Shown here in pieces: positions 6,164 to 59,155 of a stretch of DNA of 64,000 nucleotides. Source of the stretch: Bdellovibrionales bacterium (GTDB lineage Bacteria > Bdellovibrionota > Bdellovibrionia > Bdellovibrionales > JAGQZY01); NCBI GenBank assembly GCA_019750295.1, contig JAIEOS010000048.1, forward strand, positions 68,467 through 132,466, given 5' to 3'. Under the pieces are notes generated by a model, which saw only the letters and a list, made by a program, of their open reading frames with translations, was not told where the DNA came from and did not search any database. The translations under genes were made by a program, and so were the position numbers. Position 1 is the stretch's first letter. Each line of letters opens with the position of its first letter.

Positions 6164-6235
6164 AAGGTTCCAGCTCCCTACGTGCACTTTTCCCCACCGG
6201 CGTGGGGAAAAGTGCACGTAGGGAGCTGGAACCTT
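6164..6235. repeat. 72-bp perfect palindrome P1 (34-bp stem, CGGC loop)
   Basis: Arms 6164..6197 and 6202..6235 were verified base by base as exact reverse complements (AAGGTTCCAGCTCCCTACGTGCACTTTTCCCCAC / GTGGGGAAAAGTGCACGTAGGGAGCTGGAACCTT). The last base overlaps the mrcA stop codon. Confidence 0.9.
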
Positions 6236-8943
6236 TAGAAGTCTTCGCGGAGGAAGCTTTTGTCCTCGACGTCTTTTTCTTGATCGGTCTGTGGGTTAGC
6301 TCCAGGTTCGGTTCCAGCGCGAAATGGGACACGAAGAGCGTCGGCACCATTTGAAACTTTACCCGTCACTTTATCTACCGTCGCAAACGTAATGCCTTCG
6401 GGGGGTTCAAATGTCGCAATCGGTAAATCTTTATGCACGTGCTGCATGTAGGGAAGCCAAATGGGGAGAGCGGAATCGCCGCCAGTTTCGCCGCGTCCTA
6501 ATGTTTTCTCGGTATCTAATCCCACCCAAACACTCGTAGAGATTTGCGGTGTAAAACCGAGAAACCAAGCATCGTAATAACCATTCGTGGTTCCGGTTTT
6601 ACCCCCAGAGGCGCGACCGAGGGCGGCTGCGCGTCCTCCGGTGCCGTCGGGCTCCATGGTGACTCCTTGGAGCATACTCACCATTAAGTATGCCGTTTGG
6701 GGCGAAATCAATTGATCGTGATCTGGAAAATAAAAAGAATTCACCAACGGTTTTAATTTGGGATCTTGTTCCATCTTTTGCTGATGGGCTTGGACCAGCC
6801 GAGGATATTCCTCTCGTTTGGTGGCGAACTCTTGCTCGATCGCCGCAATTTTTTCTTTAAATCTCTCATCGAGGGAGACATTTTTAAGTAAAGTGTTTCC
6901 TGCGTGGTCCTTCACCTCGCGAATGATAATAGGAGTAAAACGCTTTCCTTTGTTTGCAAAGACGGAAAAAGCTTTGTTCATCTCGTAGACGGTCACACCA
7001 CTCGTACCTAGAGCCAAAGAGAGGTCCATGTTGAGCGGACTAAAAATTCCCAAGCGGCGAGCAAATTCCGCTGAAAAGGGCACGGTGGCTTTTTCCAACA
7101 CTCGAATGGTTGGCGTATTTAAAGAGCGCTTGAGTGCTGTTCTCATAAGAACGTCTCCGGTAAATTTCCCGTCATAGTTCTCAGGCTTCCAAGCCTCTTC
7201 CTCTTCTTTGTCTTTGCTCGAAGCGGCTGTGGTTTGTGTATTCTCGTCCCCTTGTAATTTTTGTCCCCCGTAGACAATGGGAGCTCCCATGATCGGAGTC
7301 GCAGGAGTGAGGCCTGCATCCAGCCCCGCCGCATAAACGATCGGCTTAAATCCTGAGCCGGTTTGGCGCAAGGCTTGAATCGCACGATTGAATTTAGATT
7401 TTTTGTAGAAGTCGTATCCACCGACCATCGCAATAATGTCCCCAGTTTCGAGATCAAAGGACAGAAGAGCGCTTTCGACCTCCGGCTCTTGCTCTAATGC
7501 GAGATGCGCAAAGTTTTTATAATTTGTTTTAGGAGCATTTTTGCCAACGGCCGGGGCGCTGTAGGATTTATTGAGAATCATAACGTCGATCACGTCGCCG
7601 GGAAGCAACGCCTGAGAGACTTTTTTGATGTGGAGATGTTCTCCGTAATGAAGATCGGGATTAAATTTTCTCGCCCACGCCATATCCTTGAGGGGAATTA
7701 CACCTTCGCCCTCGGCAAAGTTGACGTAAGCTACATTGGCCACATCATCAATTTTAACGACGAGGCCCTCGACGATTTCCCCAAGGGAGATGTAAGGAGG
7801 GATATTGTCCATTCCGTCGCCGACCGGTTGATGAAACGTCTTAAATTCTTTAAGCGTAGGAAATGATCCGTCGGCAGCGATCTCTAAATATTTTCTTTTA
7901 TCTTTAAATAGAAAATCTCGGGTGGAAGTTAAAAATTTTTGAACATCCTCGGTATTGGCGAGATCAATTTTTCGTTTAGGCCCCCGATATCCACGACGCT
8001 TGTCAATGCGGCGTAGACCTTCCTGAACAACCTCTTGCGCTTTCTTTTGCGCGCTCAGATCCATTCCCATATAAATTTTTAAACCTTGATTAAGAACGAC
8101 GTCCTCGCCTAAAGTTTCCACCAGAAGTTGGCGCACGATTTCGGTGTAGTACGGACCCACATCTTTATAAGATTTTTTAATCTGAACTTTGAGCACTTCC
8201 TCTACCGCTTTATCGGCTTCTTCTTGAGTGATACTCCCAACTTCGACCATTCGCCGAAGGACATGGCGCTGGCGATCTTTTGCGAGCTTAGGAGTCAGAA
8301 CGGGATTCATTCGGCTGGGCATGGGTGCAAGGCCCGCGATCATCGCCATCTCGGCGAGGGATAATTTATCTATCGGTTTCCGGAAATACGTTTCTGCAGC
8401 CGCGACAATGCCGTAGGCTCCCTGACCGAGATAAATCTGATTGAGGTAAAGATAAAGAATTTCCTCTTTGGAAAGATGCTGCTCCATTTTGTAGGTAAGG
8501 AGAGCTTCCTTAATTTTACGTGTGTAGTTCTTTTCGGGAGATAAAAAGAGTGAGCGAGCGGTTTGTTGCGAGATGGTCGATGCTCCCTGCCGTTTGGAAC
8601 CTGCCATGGTGTTGACCCAAATCGCTCGAGCAATGGCGATATAATTAAATCCGCCGTGAGTAAAAAATTCGTCATCCTCGACGGCAAGAAAGGCTTTCAC
8701 AAAAAGAGGAGGCATTTTGTCATAAGGAACTAGAACGCGCACCTGATTGTAGAGCTCATTGACCTTTTGTCCTTTACGATCAAACACTTCCGAGACCAGT
8801 AAGGGTTTGTAATCAGCAATACTAAAAAGCGGCGGAAGTTGCTTGTATTGGTAATATAAAATTCCACCGGCAGAGACCGCCGCAAGAACAATGATGATGA
8901 AATTAACCAGAAGAATATTTTTAATGATTCGGCGCAAACGCAA
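6235..8943 (-). CDS. mrcA: penicillin-binding protein 1A (bifunctional transglycosylase/transpeptidase)
   Basis: 902 aa with an N-terminal TM anchor. GT51 motifs are EDDEFFTHGG and GASTISQQ. Transpeptidase motifs are SGFK (SxxK), SLN (SxN) and KTGTTN. Confidence 0.95.
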   Translation of the reverse strand: MRLRRIIKNILLVNFIIIVLAAVSAGGILYYQYKQLPPLFSIADYKPLLVSEVFDRKGQKVNELYNQVRVLVPYDKMPPLFVKAFLAVEDDEFFTHGGFNYIAIARAIWVNTMAGSKRQGASTISQQTARSLFLSPEKNYTRKIKEALLTYKMEQHLSKEEILYLYLNQIYLGQGAYGIVAAAETYFRKPIDKLSLAEMAMIAGLAPMPSRMNPVLTPKLAKDRQRHVLRRMVEVGSITQEEADKAVEEVLKVQIKKSYKDVGPYYTEIVRQLLVETLGEDVVLNQGLKIYMGMDLSAQKKAQEVVQEGLRRIDKRRGYRGPKRKIDLANTEDVQKFLTSTRDFLFKDKRKYLEIAADGSFPTLKEFKTFHQPVGDGMDNIPPYISLGEIVEGLVVKIDDVANVAYVNFAEGEGVIPLKDMAWARKFNPDLHYGEHLHIKKVSQALLPGDVIDVMILNKSYSAPAVGKNAPKTNYKNFAHLALEQEPEVESALLSFDLETGDIIAMVGGYDFYKKSKFNRAIQALRQTGSGFKPIVYAAGLDAGLTPATPIMGAPIVYGGQKLQGDENTQTTAASSKDKEEEEAWKPENYDGKFTGDVLMRTALKRSLNTPTIRVLEKATVPFSAEFARRLGIFSPLNMDLSLALGTSGVTVYEMNKAFSVFANKGKRFTPIIIREVKDHAGNTLLKNVSLDERFKEKIAAIEQEFATKREEYPRLVQAHQQKMEQDPKLKPLVNSFYFPDHDQLISPQTAYLMVSMLQGVTMEPDGTGGRAAALGRASGGKTGTTNGYYDAWFLGFTPQISTSVWVGLDTEKTLGRGETGGDSALPIWLPYMQHVHKDLPIATFEPPEGITFATVDKVTGKVSNGADALRVPFRAGTEPGANPQTDQEKDVEDKSFLREDF

Positions 8944-10514: not shown

Positions 10515-10746
10515 CTCTAATAATTATGACCGAGATCCGGAATTTTGCTATGATCAGAGGTGAGATTTCTGTGGCATATGCTAAGAATACAGAAATCCTA
10601 CAAGCAAATGTAAGGGGACTGTCCCTGACAATGGTGTGCAGGCCCAGTTTAAGCTGGGAAGCCTAAAGTTGTTATCATGGTCACCCACTTTAAGTCTTGG
10701 GATTTCCTTGTTTCTTCAGCGCCACAGATTTCTTTTTATTTTCTTT

Positions 10747-10774
10747 GTCATCCTGAGCAATTGCGAAGGATCTC
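10747..10774 (+). repeat. copy 2 of the dispersed 27-nt element
   Basis: GTCATCCTGAGCAATTGCGAAGGATCTC, with one extra nt relative to the other copies. It lies in the long leader upstream of xseA. Confidence 0.7.
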
Positions 10775-10931
10775 TCACATTGACGTGGCTCCCTGCATTT
10801 ATTACTCTTTCGGCGTGCAAAATTCCGATCCTCAAAAAAATAAAACGACAGTCAATAGCGCCTGGGCGTCTTTGTTAGAAAACAATGCTCCAGTGAAAAC
10901 GTCACTGTCGACCTCGGGGAATCCGACGGCG

Positions 10932-12311
10932 ATGCCCGCTGAGGTTGTGACGGCTCCATCAACAGTGGCGGAGCGTATCGGCCAGGAAACGGCAGAGCCC
11001 GCGGTGTTGACCGTGACGGGCTTAAACACGCTGATCAAAAAGAATATCGAAAACGAATTTCCAACCATTTGGCTCCAGGGGGAAATTTCGAATTTTAAAC
11101 CGCACACTTCCGGTCACTATTATTTTTCTCTCAAAGATAATAAATCGCAAATCAGCGCGGTGATGTTTAAAGGTTTTAACTCCAAGCTTAAGTTCCGTCC
11201 CGAATCAGGGATGGAAGTGATCGTGCGGGGTCGCGTGACGGTGTACGAACCGCGTGGCACCTATCAAATATTTTGCGAAAACATGGAGCCTGTAGGAGCT
11301 GGGGCCTTACAGCAGGCCTATGAACAGCTCAAAGCTCAACTTCAAAAAGAGGGCTTATTTAATCCCGAACTCAAAAAGAAGTGGCCCGCGTTTCCTCAGC
11401 ATATCGGAATCGTCACATCGCCAACGGGTGCAGCCATTCAAGATATGCTCAATGTTTTAACCCGACGTTATCGCGCAGCTCAGATCACCGTGATTCCGGC
11501 GCGTGTTCAGGGCGAGGGAGCGGCTGCAGAAATTGCTCGGGGAATTCAGTTAGCAAATCGAGTGAAAGACATTGATGTATTGATTGTGGGTCGAGGCGGC
11601 GGATCTATCGAAGATCTCTGGCCGTTTAATGAAGAGATCGTGGCTCGAGCGATCTTCGCATCGAAGATTCCGATTATTTCTGCGGTCGGGCACGAAATCG
11701 ATTTTACAATCGCCGACTTCGTTGCCGACCACCGAGCCCCAACGCCCTCCGCCGCCGCGGAGATTGTCGCTCAGAGCGTGACGGAAACCACCGAGCGCCT
11801 CCGTCGCCAACAGCGTCAGTTATCTCACCTGATGCGACAAAAGCTCAGCGAGGTTTCTAAGTACCTTATTAATATACAAGCGCGCTTGGTGGATCCGAAA
11901 CGCCGCCTCGAGGATTTAAGCCTGCGTTGTGACGAACTTTCCCATCGATTAAATTTAGCAATGCAACAAAAACTGCGAGAGCGCAAGATGCGAGTGCAAC
12001 TTTTACGGACTCGCATGCCATCACCTAAAGATATGGTCAGTGCGGCGAGAGACGTGCTTAAACGCTTGCAACATCAGTTGGTGCTCCAGCAAAAAGCCAT
12101 GCTCAGTCGAGCGCGCGAAAGCGTCGAACAGCAAATGACTTTATTGGATTCACTCAGTCCGCTGAAAGTCTTACAGCGGGGCTACTCGGTTGTTTTTAAA
12201 AATGAAAAAGTGATTCGAAGTTTTAAAGAAGTTCAGCCTCAAGATCGTTTGCGCGTTCAATTGGCTGATGGTGTTTTAGATGTCGAAGTTCAAAACGGGA
12301 GTAAACCATGA
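10932..12311 (+). CDS. xseA: exodeoxyribonuclease VII large subunit
   Basis: The OB-fold N-terminus is LTVTGLNTLIKKNIENEFPTIWLQGEISNFKPHTSGHYYFSLKD, and the C-terminus is coiled-coil. The ORF-track start at 10677 would add 85 residues that include the repeat element, so I place the start at ATG 10932. The start remains uncertain. Confidence 0.88.
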   Translation: MPAEVVTAPSTVAERIGQETAEPAVLTVTGLNTLIKKNIENEFPTIWLQGEISNFKPHTSGHYYFSLKDNKSQISAVMFKGFNSKLKFRPESGMEVIVRGRVTVYEPRGTYQIFCENMEPVGAGALQQAYEQLKAQLQKEGLFNPELKKKWPAFPQHIGIVTSPTGAAIQDMLNVLTRRYRAAQITVIPARVQGEGAAAEIARGIQLANRVKDIDVLIVGRGGGSIEDLWPFNEEIVARAIFASKIPIISAVGHEIDFTIADFVADHRAPTPSAAAEIVAQSVTETTERLRRQQRQLSHLMRQKLSEVSKYLINIQARLVDPKRRLEDLSLRCDELSHRLNLAMQQKLRERKMRVQLLRTRMPSPKDMVSAARDVLKRLQHQLVLQQKAMLSRARESVEQQMTLLDSLSPLKVLQRGYSVVFKNEKVIRSFKEVQPQDRLRVQLADGVLDVEVQNGSKP

Positions 12312-27910: not shown

Positions 27911-27960
27911 TGAACCTCCTGTTTAAGCGCGGAAACTCGAATTTCTTGGAGTCTGCCTCT

Positions 27961-27990
27961 ATTATGTAGGACGTCGCTTTCGACGATCAA
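27961..27990 (-). promoter_or_regulatory. candidate sigma-70 promoter for the 27371..27910 gene
   Basis: The minus strand reads TTGATC, an 18-nt spacer, then CATAAT, about 50 nt upstream of the ATG. This is a pattern match only. Confidence 0.25.
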
Positions 27991-28055
27991 TTTATTGTGG
28001 AAAACCTGAAAGAATTTGCACCAAGGCCGAGAGCCTAAAGTCCAGCCCCCCAAAC

Positions 28056-28147
28056 TGTCCGGCAGGTACGCCGATACTTTTTGAGAACCGGTGCGTCTAG
28101 AGCTAGACGCACCGGTTCTCAAAAAGTATCGGCGTACCTGCCGGACA
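28056..28147. repeat. 92-bp perfect palindrome P2 (45-bp arms, 2-nt centre)
   Basis: Arms 28056..28100 and 28103..28147 were verified as exact reverse complements (TGTCCGGCAGGTACGCCGATACTTTTTGAGAACCGGTGCGTCTAG / CTAGACGCACCGGTTCTCAAAAAGTATCGGCGTACCTGCCGGACA). Confidence 0.9.
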
Positions 28148-28150
28148 AAT

Positions 28151-28179
28151 AAAAAAGCCCACGCTGGGGTGGGCTTTTT
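28151..28179 (-). terminator. rho-independent (bidirectional-looking) terminator after phaR
   Basis: AAAAAAGCCCAC-GCTGG-GTGGGCTTTTT. The stem is GC-rich with T-runs on both strands, and it lies 25 nt past the phaR stop. Confidence 0.75.
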
Positions 28180-28203
28180 GAAACATCTGTTCTAAATCTA
28201 AGA

Positions 28204-54311: not shown

Positions 54312-54376
54312 TCAGTGGGTACCCGGTACCTTTTGCGGATGCGCTGCATCCGCAAAAGGTACCGGGTACCCACTGA
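54312..54376. repeat. 65-bp perfect palindrome P3 (31-bp arms, GCT loop)
   Basis: Arms 54312..54342 and 54346..54376 were verified as exact reverse complements (TCAGTGGGTACCCGGTACCTTTTGCGGATGC / GCATCCGCAAAAGGTACCGGGTACCCACTGA). It fills the 78-nt gap between ctaF and the heme O synthase gene. Confidence 0.9.
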
Positions 54377-58795: not shown

Positions 58796-59128
58796 ATGTC
58801 GCTCGCATTGTCACTTTTATTTTTGTCGAATATTTTTATGACTTTTGCTTGGTACGGACATCTCAAACATCTTAAAGAGTCTCCGCTGTTTATCGTTATC
58901 CTGGTGAGTTGGGGAATTGCATTTTTTGAGTATAGTTTGCAAGTTCCCGCGAATCGGATCGGTTCACAGTATTACACGCTCCCACAGCTTAAAATTCTAC
59001 AAGAAGTGATCACGATGATTGTTTTTGCAGGATTCACTTATTTTTATATGAAGATGCCACTCAAGCTAGATTACTTATGGGCCAGTCTCTGTTTGGTCGG
59101 TGCAGTTTATTTTATCTTTAGAAACTAA
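58796..59128 (+). CDS. DMT-superfamily small membrane protein (DUF486-like)
   Basis: 110 aa with four TM segments (FMTFAWYGHLK...FEYSLQVPANRIG). AGGAG lies upstream of the ATG. Confidence 0.8.
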   Translation: MSLALSLLFLSNIFMTFAWYGHLKHLKESPLFIVILVSWGIAFFEYSLQVPANRIGSQYYTLPQLKILQEVITMIVFAGFTYFYMKMPLKLDYLWASLCLVGAVYFIFRN

Positions 59129-59155
59129 AAAGCCGACGCGAGGTCGGCTTTTTTT
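59127..59155. terminator. bidirectional rho-independent terminator between convergent genes
   Basis: AAAAAGCCGAC-GCGAG-GTCGGCTTTTTTT. Confidence 0.8.

Follow-up and report, generated by a model that had tools for sequence, protein, structure and literature searches.

A 92-bp perfect palindrome, hereafter P2, lies at positions 28056–28147 of a 64,000-nucleotide stretch of a Bdellovibrionales bacterium (contig JAIEOS010000048.1, positions 68,467 to 132,466 of the forward strand), the whole of which is referred to as the window. P2 is very likely a REPIN, that is, a doublet of inverted repetitive extragenic palindrome (REP) units forming one hairpin, from a REP family that carries a GTAC tag, with a REP-associated tyrosine transposase (RAYT), a single-strand-specific HUH/Y1 tyrosine transposase, as the cognate enzyme. 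It has the architecture of this family, the units of which bracket RAYT genes in relatives. The elements of the window persist at orthologous sites in a sister species, where base changes compensated on the opposite arm and the flip of one element were observed. REPs are palindromes of 20–50 nt following a conserved tetranucleotide, mostly GTAG, and a tnpA-REP gene flanked by REPs is called a REPtron (PMC8266576). In REPINs, two inverted REPs and the spacer between them fold as a hairpin with conserved ends and a variable yet pairing spacer, in which compensatory changes are common (PMC3116915). This is a known class of selfish DNA and no new mechanism is involved; new are the GTAC tag and the occurrence in Bdellovibrionota and in other lineages. 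A literature search on family sequences such as GGTACCAGGTACC found no paper, an absence that is no proof of novelty, and among the papers listed by a search combining Bdellovibrio with RAYT or REP terms none mentions Bdellovibrio.

The arms of P2 (28056–28100 and 28103–28147) are 45 nt long and 100% complementary around a 2-nt centre, AG, exactly as the preliminary description of this DNA had reported. That description had also presented P2 as the largest of three perfect palindromes in the window, which proved correct. P1 (6164–6235; arms 6164–6197 and 6202–6235, 34 nt, with a 4-nt loop) and P3 (54312–54376; arms 54312–54342 and 54346–54376, 31 nt, with a 3-nt loop) are free of arm mismatches and are the sole other long hairpins. 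An ungapped, mismatch-tolerant search of the window revealed no further long hairpin, perfect or imperfect. The next-longest perfect hairpins numbered five and had arms of 10–12 nt, two of them (28152–28179 and 59127–59153) being terminator-type stems with an A-run on one side and a T-run on the other. Five shuffles of the window sequence contained no perfect hairpin whose arms reached 12 nt. The folding energies as single-stranded DNA were -60.2 kcal/mol for P2 and -45.7 and -41.3 kcal/mol for the other two, corresponding to z-scores against shuffles of -21 for P2, -16 and -15. All three palindromes are situated in short spacers separating same-strand genes.

P2 can be read as two inverted 17-nt REP units (GGTACGCCGATAC followed by a T-run) around a self-complementary centre, with complementary flanks that add 9 bp to the stem. 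The left unit, GGTACGCCGATACTTTT, occupies positions 28065–28081 on the plus strand and is an exact match to the family pattern given below; the right unit, its inverted copy, is an exact minus-strand match at 28122–28138. Between them, the 40-nt variable spacer (28082–28121) consists of a 19-bp stem and the 2-nt centre, so that the pair of units folds as a single 45-bp stem. Outside the units, the 9-nt extension TGTCCGGCA (28056–28064, plus strand) pairs with its complement TGCCGGACA (28139–28147, plus-strand reading). P3, in the spacer between the cytochrome oxidase subunit IV gene and ctaB, has the same layout, with REP units at 54318–54334 and 54354–54370 and the centre GCGGATGC gct GCATCCGC. 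P1, located at the stop codon of the PBP1A gene and upstream of uvrA, is a looser member of the family, GGTTCCAGCTC...CTTTT.

The module GGTAC-N7-CTTTT / AAAAG-N7-GTACC matched exactly in P2 (28065–28138), in P3 (54318–54370) and in the sister-species orthologue of P2. The three palindromes had been proposed to form a family with common words; this held for P2 and P3, which possess the exact unit, and for P1 only loosely. A scan of JGI metagenome contigs for GGTAC-N7-CTTTT, 12–42 nt and AAAAG-N7-GTACC matched at least 120 stretches, and the statistics of the family were drawn from 103 distinct elements among the matches listed. In these elements the unconstrained N7 positions paired in 678 of 721 cases, compared to a chance expectation of 25%, and 27 of the 103 were perfect down to a centre of at most 5 nt. 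The same pattern gave three chance matches in a viral collection, none of them palindromic. The consensus of the arm ends (n = 246) was (GC)AAAA-GGTAC[C/G]-N-G-[G/C]-T-[T/A]-[C/A]-C-TTTT. The unit therefore corresponds to a double GGTACC-like hexamer, GGTACC-N-GGTACC, flanked by an A-run and a T-run and often a small palindrome in itself; GGTTCC was seen as a variant of GGTACC in contigs L147 and L120. The invariant word of the family, GGTAC, with its GTAC, forms part of the stem. The centres differ among elements and are frequently GC-rich hairpins ending in ATGC nnn GCAT, as is the case in P3.

More than 100 independent metagenome contigs carry the P2/P3 architecture. The GC content of the family-bearing contigs ranged from 0.34 to 0.69 among the matches listed, which indicates that several lineages hold the GTAC-tagged family; L197 was the only metagenome contig placed by protein similarity to loci of the window or of Bdellovibrionales (a cox operon, with CoxI 73% identical). 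Within one set of contigs, 22 near-identical copies were present at separate loci. The 19-nt unit of P2, GGTACGCCGATACTTTTTG, was also found in L156 and L179, between unrelated flanks. The unit is thus repeated, with two to three copies in the 64 kb of the window, and mostly extragenic, near the 3' ends of genes. In the listed metagenome sample, the distance from the element core to the 3' end of a gene had a median of 9.5 nt (10 nt or less in 42 of 80) and to the 5' end a median of 93.5 nt. The flanking genes were on the same strand in 42 cases, convergent in 20 and divergent in 7, the remainder lying at contig edges or inside long open frames. Stop codons frequently merge into the element, as TAG-GTACC, TAA-GGTACC or TGA-GGTACC, and P1 likewise merges with one.

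Variants of this organization were visible among the metagenome contigs. A high-GC subfamily, on contigs with a GC content of 0.60–0.69 (L108, L109, L112, L119, L138, L152, L183, L185 and L190), has GGTACCAGGWACCTTTT ends and a conserved, non-palindromic 29-nt core, CCCTGAAGGGCCCGGAGGGTGCTACGCAG, in either orientation. Head-to-tail arrays of units with a period of approximately 25 nt, AAAAGGTACCGTGTACC-AAAACGNN, occupy positions 888–950 and 2050–2210 of L126, 8652–8714 and 10304–10366 of L094 and 1510–1615 of L101, and among these array loci one palindrome with 52-nt arms is made of tandem units.

A Y1 transposase gene was bracketed by the units in 5 of the 120 metagenome loci listed (L120, L180, L102, L126 and L174). 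The proteins of L180 and L120, the only two put to Pfam, matched PF01797 (Y1_Tnp) with E-values of 7.7e-14 and 1.6e-13, respectively. The best NCBIfam model for all five was NF047646 (REP_Tyr_transpos, REP-associated tyrosine transposase), with 65.6–79.3 bits and E-values of about 1e-18 to 1e-22, compared to 16–25 bits and E-values of 1e-5 or worse for the IS200 model. The enzyme present in the relatives is therefore of the RAYT type rather than of the IS200 type. The proteins possess the HUH motif NNHFH and the tyrosine motif Y-V-Y-R-N-P-V, and their sole match in the PDB was the E. coli TnpArep (4ER8). The RAYT gene of L102 is flanked by GGTACGCCGTTACTTTT, identical to the P2 unit at 16 of 17 positions. 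The closest named homologues of its product were from Bdellovibrio bacteriovorus (71% and 64%), Bdellovibrio sp. KM01, Pseudobdellovibrio exovorus (57%) and an Oligoflexia metagenome-assembled genome (MAG), and many homologues bore the JGI label 'REP element-mobilizing transposase RayT'.

Four loci were fetched from the named homologues, and in each of them (P. exovorus JSS CP003537.1, B. bacteriovorus CP169237.1, GCA_037968775.1 and GCA_048222835.1) inverted GGTACGCCGTACCTTTT or GGTACGGCCTACCTTTT units stand on both sides of the RAYT gene, which brings the count to nine of the nine RAYT loci examined. The first 9 nt of the P2 unit are those of the bracketing unit in B. bacteriovorus and in two MAGs. 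Two Bdellovibrio genomes have a common RAYT neighbourhood (thiolase, short-chain dehydrogenase, HD protein, RAYT, flagellins), which fits a vertically inherited, domesticated single-copy gene, and the Y1 proteins of the named complete genomes were each found on just one or two contigs. The preliminary description had suggested looking for a RAYT or IS200/IS605-type TnpA gene in the genome; RAYT genes flanked by the units are present in the relatives, whereas the 64-kb window itself contains none. In B. bacteriovorus CP169237.1 (L213), a solo unit, GGTACGCCGTACCTTTTT, is located right after the stop codon of the thiolase gene at position 7692, 2.3 kb from the RAYT gene.

The recent history of the three palindromes could be followed in a sister species, represented by freshwater-metagenome contigs (PRJNA261364; Logan assemblies and MEGAHIT) with 88–92% nucleotide identity to the window. 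All three sites are occupied there. At the P2 site the REP units are retained with one base pair changed on both arms (GATAC/GTATC versus GATCC/GGATC), and the centre is wholly different, CGACGAC gaagcct GTCGTCG, with perfect 26-nt arms. The site contains an additional degenerate unit in tandem, better described as the third unit of a REP trimer, as in PMC3733652, than as the 'relic arm' of a special rearrangement. The left outer extension of P2 matches the flank found in the sister species, and the right outer copy, GCCGGACA, falls in a 13-nt gap of the alignment, the outer right-hand 8 nt of the window being missing there. The palindrome at the P1 site is shorter in the sister species and has the outer 15 bp in common with that of the window; the differences are three G.C to C.G changes, each made on both arms, and a C to T change confined to one arm. 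P1 of the window has 35 extra palindromic bases at its centre.

The P3 orthologue is identical at 64 of 65 positions and contains one uncorrected A.C mismatch, seen in several samples. The surrounding 3 kb are 92.1% identical, so that about five differences would be expected in 65 nt. In sample SRR2568014 the P3 orthologue (L214, 10336–10400, compared with L216 and L217) is the exact reverse complement of its counterpart from three other samples, with identical sequence on either side. The orientation is the same from two assemblers, and a single flip accounts for five differences. In total, four base pairs were changed on both arms, all by transversion (G.C to C.G and A.T to C.G), and two changes affected a single arm, both being transitions. 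The idea of homogenisation within each palindrome, put forward in the preliminary description, is supported by these compensated changes and by the in-situ flip.

The spacer between phaR and the lipoprotein gene was expected to be informative in relatives. In the sister species it contains a palindrome built on matching REP units. The nearest relatives in a scan of PhaR loci across GTDB genomes have a different gene downstream of phaR, and for this reason no empty-site comparison is available at phaR. Within the sister contig L001, positions 10528–10590, between the phaR stop and the terminator, include about 40 extra bases, GTCATTCTGAGGCGAGCCGAAGAATCTC...GAGATCCTTCGCTCCGCTCAC, forming an imperfect inverted repeat that is absent at window positions 28180–28203; a similar string follows phaR in L018, and these bases probably represent another small repeat family. 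Several contigs end in or near the palindromes, the 3' ends of L215–L218 lying inside the P3 orthologue and the 5' ends of L086 and L087 stopping 83 and 132 nt short of P2, which indicates that the palindromes fragment short-read assemblies.

We propose the following scheme for P2, the first steps of which follow the studied RAYT and IS200/IS605 systems. The RAYT would cleave beside the tag and would move or copy the doublet, favouring the spot just 3' of a stop codon. P2 is an old resident, in place before the split from the sister species, and its perfect symmetry would be maintained by arm-to-arm copying at the DNA level, through template switching or recombination between the arms. The same copying would remodel the centres and flip elements in place. 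Copying of DNA is preferred to selection on an RNA stem because the changes found on both arms are transversions, which cannot go via a G.U intermediate, and because of the flip and the outward extension of P2. The sample is small, and the changes point to DNA-level arm-to-arm copying as a probable mechanism. The presence of the P3 mismatch in several samples implies that the correction is not instant. The window encodes the large and small subunits of exonuclease VII (ExoVII; 10677–12311, plus strand, and the small gene after it), as identified through the Pfam annotation of the sister contig L220 (6349–8198). In E. coli, ExoVII limits template-switch mutation at quasipalindromes; on that footing, loss of ExoVII would not explain the palindromes.

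A few observations on the flanks suggest a further possibility. Just beyond the conserved unit, the flanks of the elements showed complementarity above a shuffled-partner control, up to approximately 10 nt, although subfamily structure may inflate this comparison. L156 and L179 have identical cores and differing self-complementary 5-nt flanks (CAAGA/TCTTG versus CATTA/TAATG). It is conceivable, if rather doubtful, that REPs with the GTAC tag form an undescribed superfamily, the third after GTAG and CGTC, with elements that enter or create inverted flank duplications. A self-complementary GTAC within the stem would make both DNA strands the same RAYT substrate. One arm could be inserted and the other completed by fold-back synthesis, or the element could enter at the apex of an existing hairpin. 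Such a mode of insertion would explain the perfect arms, the copy-specific complementary flanks and the nesting of P1 relative to its sister orthologue.

Several observations weigh against assigning P2 to a RAYT-dependent REPIN family. The canonical GTAG or GTGG tag, 0–2 nt 5' of the hairpin, is absent, the GTAC being inside the stem. P1 does contain CTAC...GTAG, yet on either strand its GTAG comes after the inner hairpin, on the 3' side, and P1 fits the GGTAC-N7-CTTTT pattern only loosely. The P2 unit is unable to fold alone, unlike the consensus GGTACC-N-GGTACC, and the P2 units may no longer be RAYT substrates. The RAYT scores are just below the NCBIfam equivalog cut-off of 80 bits. There is no RAYT gene within the 64-kb window or on the sister-species contigs, and none is tied to the source genome. 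In 1.31 Mb from 80 other Pseudobdellovibrionaceae/Bdellovibrionales genomes (the PhaR loci from GTDB), neither a long palindrome nor a match to the unit was found, indicating a patchy distribution. Over the approximately 47 kb shared with the sister species no element was gained or lost, and the three copies of the window differ mutually, unlike those of a recently amplified population, so that mobility in this lineage is not demonstrated. The family as a whole, proposed beforehand as REPIN-like mobilised hairpins, is supported by the more than 100 contigs, by its multiple copies within single organisms and by the nine RAYT loci, with the GTAC tag and the loose fit of P1 as caveats.

The divergence of the three copies and the lack of turnover since the species split would also be in line with a purely local origin, in which each palindrome has grown in place by template switching on an ordinary short hairpin, with neither a mobile family nor a transposase. 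Arm-to-arm copying is indeed evident in the compensated transversions, in the flip and in the outer extension, the right copy of which the sister species lacks, and the sister P1 site has a shorter palindrome with the outer stem in common. However, such an origin leaves unexplained the module common to P2, P3 and more than 100 metagenome contigs; the 17–19-nt unit is found again in other organisms and at loci that are unrelated, and the units bracket RAYT genes wherever these were examined. Local origin is largely refuted as a complete explanation, and we regard it as very improbable. Somewhat less improbable, but still unlikely, is a hairpin exapted as an RNA or DNA signal, which might stabilise mRNA 3' ends, be a site for RNase III, modulate translation near stop or start codons, or serve as a cruciform or protein-binding site. 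The family members adjoin stop codons; P1 reaches into that of PBP1A, with uvrA 44 nt further on, and P3, inside the cox operon and 5 nt before the ctaB start, is better conserved than the sequence around it, with a single difference in 65 nt against 92.1% identity. A preprint reports that REPs of E. coli act as 3'UTR regulators (bioRxiv 10.64898/2026.03.23.713779). P2, in contrast, lies past a terminator, with a promoter-like site further on, and may hardly be transcribed. Its centre differs between the sister species, its stem is not followed by a U-tract, the compensated changes are transversions with no G.U route, and Rfam gives only generic hairpin models.

Terminal inverted repeats around a variable core could equally belong to a miniature inverted-repeat transposable element of a classical DDE transposon or to a deletion derivative of an autonomous IS200/IS605 element. 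The conserved non-palindromic 29-nt core of some high-GC members, found in either orientation, and the insertion sequence-like position of the Y1 gene between inward-facing units in L174, L213, L223 and L224 are compatible with such an identity. Nevertheless, no direct target-site duplication surrounds the palindromes (the flanks are CAAAC/AATAA for P2, CGGCA/AGGAA for P3 and AGCGT/TAGAA for P1), the flanks of the family tend to complementarity instead, and no DDE transposase was seen beside the units. The Y1 proteins are far closer to the RAYT than to the IS200 model, those of the named complete genomes occur on only one or two contigs each, and two Bdellovibrio genomes share the RAYT neighbourhood; we give this identity hardly any weight. 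The last candidate, a foldback chimera created during sequencing or assembly, had been raised at the outset, and the short-read contigs of related strains do often end in or near palindromes. The worry was not upheld. Independent short-read assemblies (MEGAHIT and Logan) from several sister-species samples have palindromes at all three orthologous sites, and complete genomes, like the more than 100 unrelated metagenome contigs, show the same architecture, which makes an artefact practically negligible as an explanation. Integron attC sites were ruled out, the elements lying in core operons rather than in cassette arrays and being devoid of attC end motifs, and telomere-resolution sites and CRISPR repeats were ruled out by context.

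With P2 considered as a resident REPIN, its surroundings suggest little involvement in gene expression. The phaR gene, on the minus strand, ends in an intrinsic-terminator-like hairpin (28152–28179, minus strand), a consensus match with an 11-bp stem, a 6-nt loop and a T tail, separated from P2 by 4 nt. A promoter-like site for the lipoprotein gene was recognized at 27961–27990 (minus strand; TTGATC, 18 nt, CATAAT), also by consensus match only (9 of 12 positions). Its -35 element begins at 27990, with P2 65 nt upstream, so that the position between phaR and the lipoprotein gene, about 65 nt from a putative -35, agrees with the preliminary description. The latter had also argued that P2 is not a terminator. 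This view stands. Read on either strand, P2 has a T-run first, then the GC-rich stem and then an A-run, which is opposite to terminator order; the full stem leads into no T-run, and a terminator scan returned only the neighbouring site (28179–28152). P2 is probably a passive passenger without a part in phaR termination, as suggested by its place between the phaR terminator and the promoter-like site and by a centre that is not conserved between species. P1 shares one base with the PBP1A stop codon, and 44 nt separate its end from uvrA. P3 starts 8 nt past the stop codon of the cytochrome oxidase subunit IV gene and ends 5 nt before the ctaB start, within the operon. These two elements, being within transcripts and near stop or start codons, may have effects on mRNA.

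A scan of the window with Rfam 15 at the gathering score gave no match at P1, P2 or P3, and a permissive scan of P3 produced sub-threshold matches only, nearly all to microRNA-precursor models, which are generic hairpins. The sole gathering-level match in the window was the 6S/SsrS RNA at 10563–10734 (plus strand, 75.6 bits). Between P2 and the lipoprotein start, the stretch 27911–28046 of the window showed few differences from positions 10714–10849 of L001, in surroundings approximately 88–89% identical; this near-invariance suggests a constrained promoter or leader.

A 92-bp perfect palindrome, which would be expected to be unstable, is in this way accounted for by a known class of elements that are partners of domesticated transposases. 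The REPIN class is extended to the predatory Bdellovibrionota and to many uncultured lineages, with a different, self-complementary tag. As the tag is thought to guide the choice of the cleavage site, a natural GTAC family constitutes a ready test of the guide model. The comparisons with the sister species provide rare, datable natural cases of transversions compensated on the other arm, of the replacement of a centre, of an element flipped in place and of a mismatch still awaiting correction. In practical terms, short-read assemblies break at these elements, and some of them are found inside operons such as cox, beside stop and start codons.

Among known systems, the REPINs and RAYTs of Pseudomonas fluorescens SBW25 (GI-GIII; Bertels and Rainey 2011, PMC3116915, PMC3337134) are alike in many respects. 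They have an inverted REP pair and a spacer forming one long hairpin, conserved ends, a varying but pairing spacer with common compensatory changes, an extragenic location, a cognate RAYT flanked by the same units (here in the relatives) and a long persistence at orthologous sites. They differ in that the tag of the present family is GTAC, self-complementary and inside the stem, and that the unit is a double hexamer, GGTACC-N-GGTACC, with an A-run before it and a T-run after it; here, moreover, about a quarter of the elements are perfect right to the centre and the copies in the genome of P2 are strongly divergent. The REPs of E. coli, organized in BIMEs, with TnpArep (4ER8; PMC3479197, PMC8266576) share a Y1/HUH enzyme and a location just downstream of stop codons. 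However, their hairpins are imperfect, the bulge in them is essential, and they carry a 5' GTAG that the present family lacks; the sequence identity between TnpArep and the RAYTs described here is low (E-values of about 1e-5 to 1e-6). The described REP classes have GTAG or GTGG 5' of the hairpin (PMC8266576, PMC6006769). Perfectly palindromic hairpin units are known in the Group 3 REPtrons of Stenotrophomonas maltophilia and Marinomonas (PMC8266576), but these are palindromes of 10–16 nt after GTAG, whereas here the stem passes through the tag and the arms of the doublets reach 31–45 bp. In vitro, changing the GTAG of the Marinomonas REP to GTAC redirected cleavage to GA/GT sites (PMC8266576), which makes a GTAC guide chemically plausible.

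Di Nocera et al. 2013 (PMC3733652) distinguished the GTAG and CGTC superfamilies and described dimers with variable spacers, trimers and dimers inside palindromic sequences, together with RAYT-like genes flanked by non-GTAG inverted repeats. In the latter, the TIRYTs or TIRtrons, inverted repeats with no relation to GTAG REPs lie on either side of a RAYT-like gene, and the repeats exist elsewhere in the genome as singles, dimers and clusters, some of them self-complementary, as in the family of P2. Their repeats have a GGGGWSAS motif or are mutually unrelated, and the main text of that paper mentions neither a GGTAC type nor Bdellovibrionota. Finally, the effects of the short-range template switching that corrects quasipalindromes and inverts their spacers (PMC8794818, PMC8604942) resemble the homogenisation of the arms, the inversion of the interior and the outward growth of the stem described here. 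Template switching of this kind is a general mutational process, whereas in the palindromes of the window it would be superimposed on a transposase-associated repeat.

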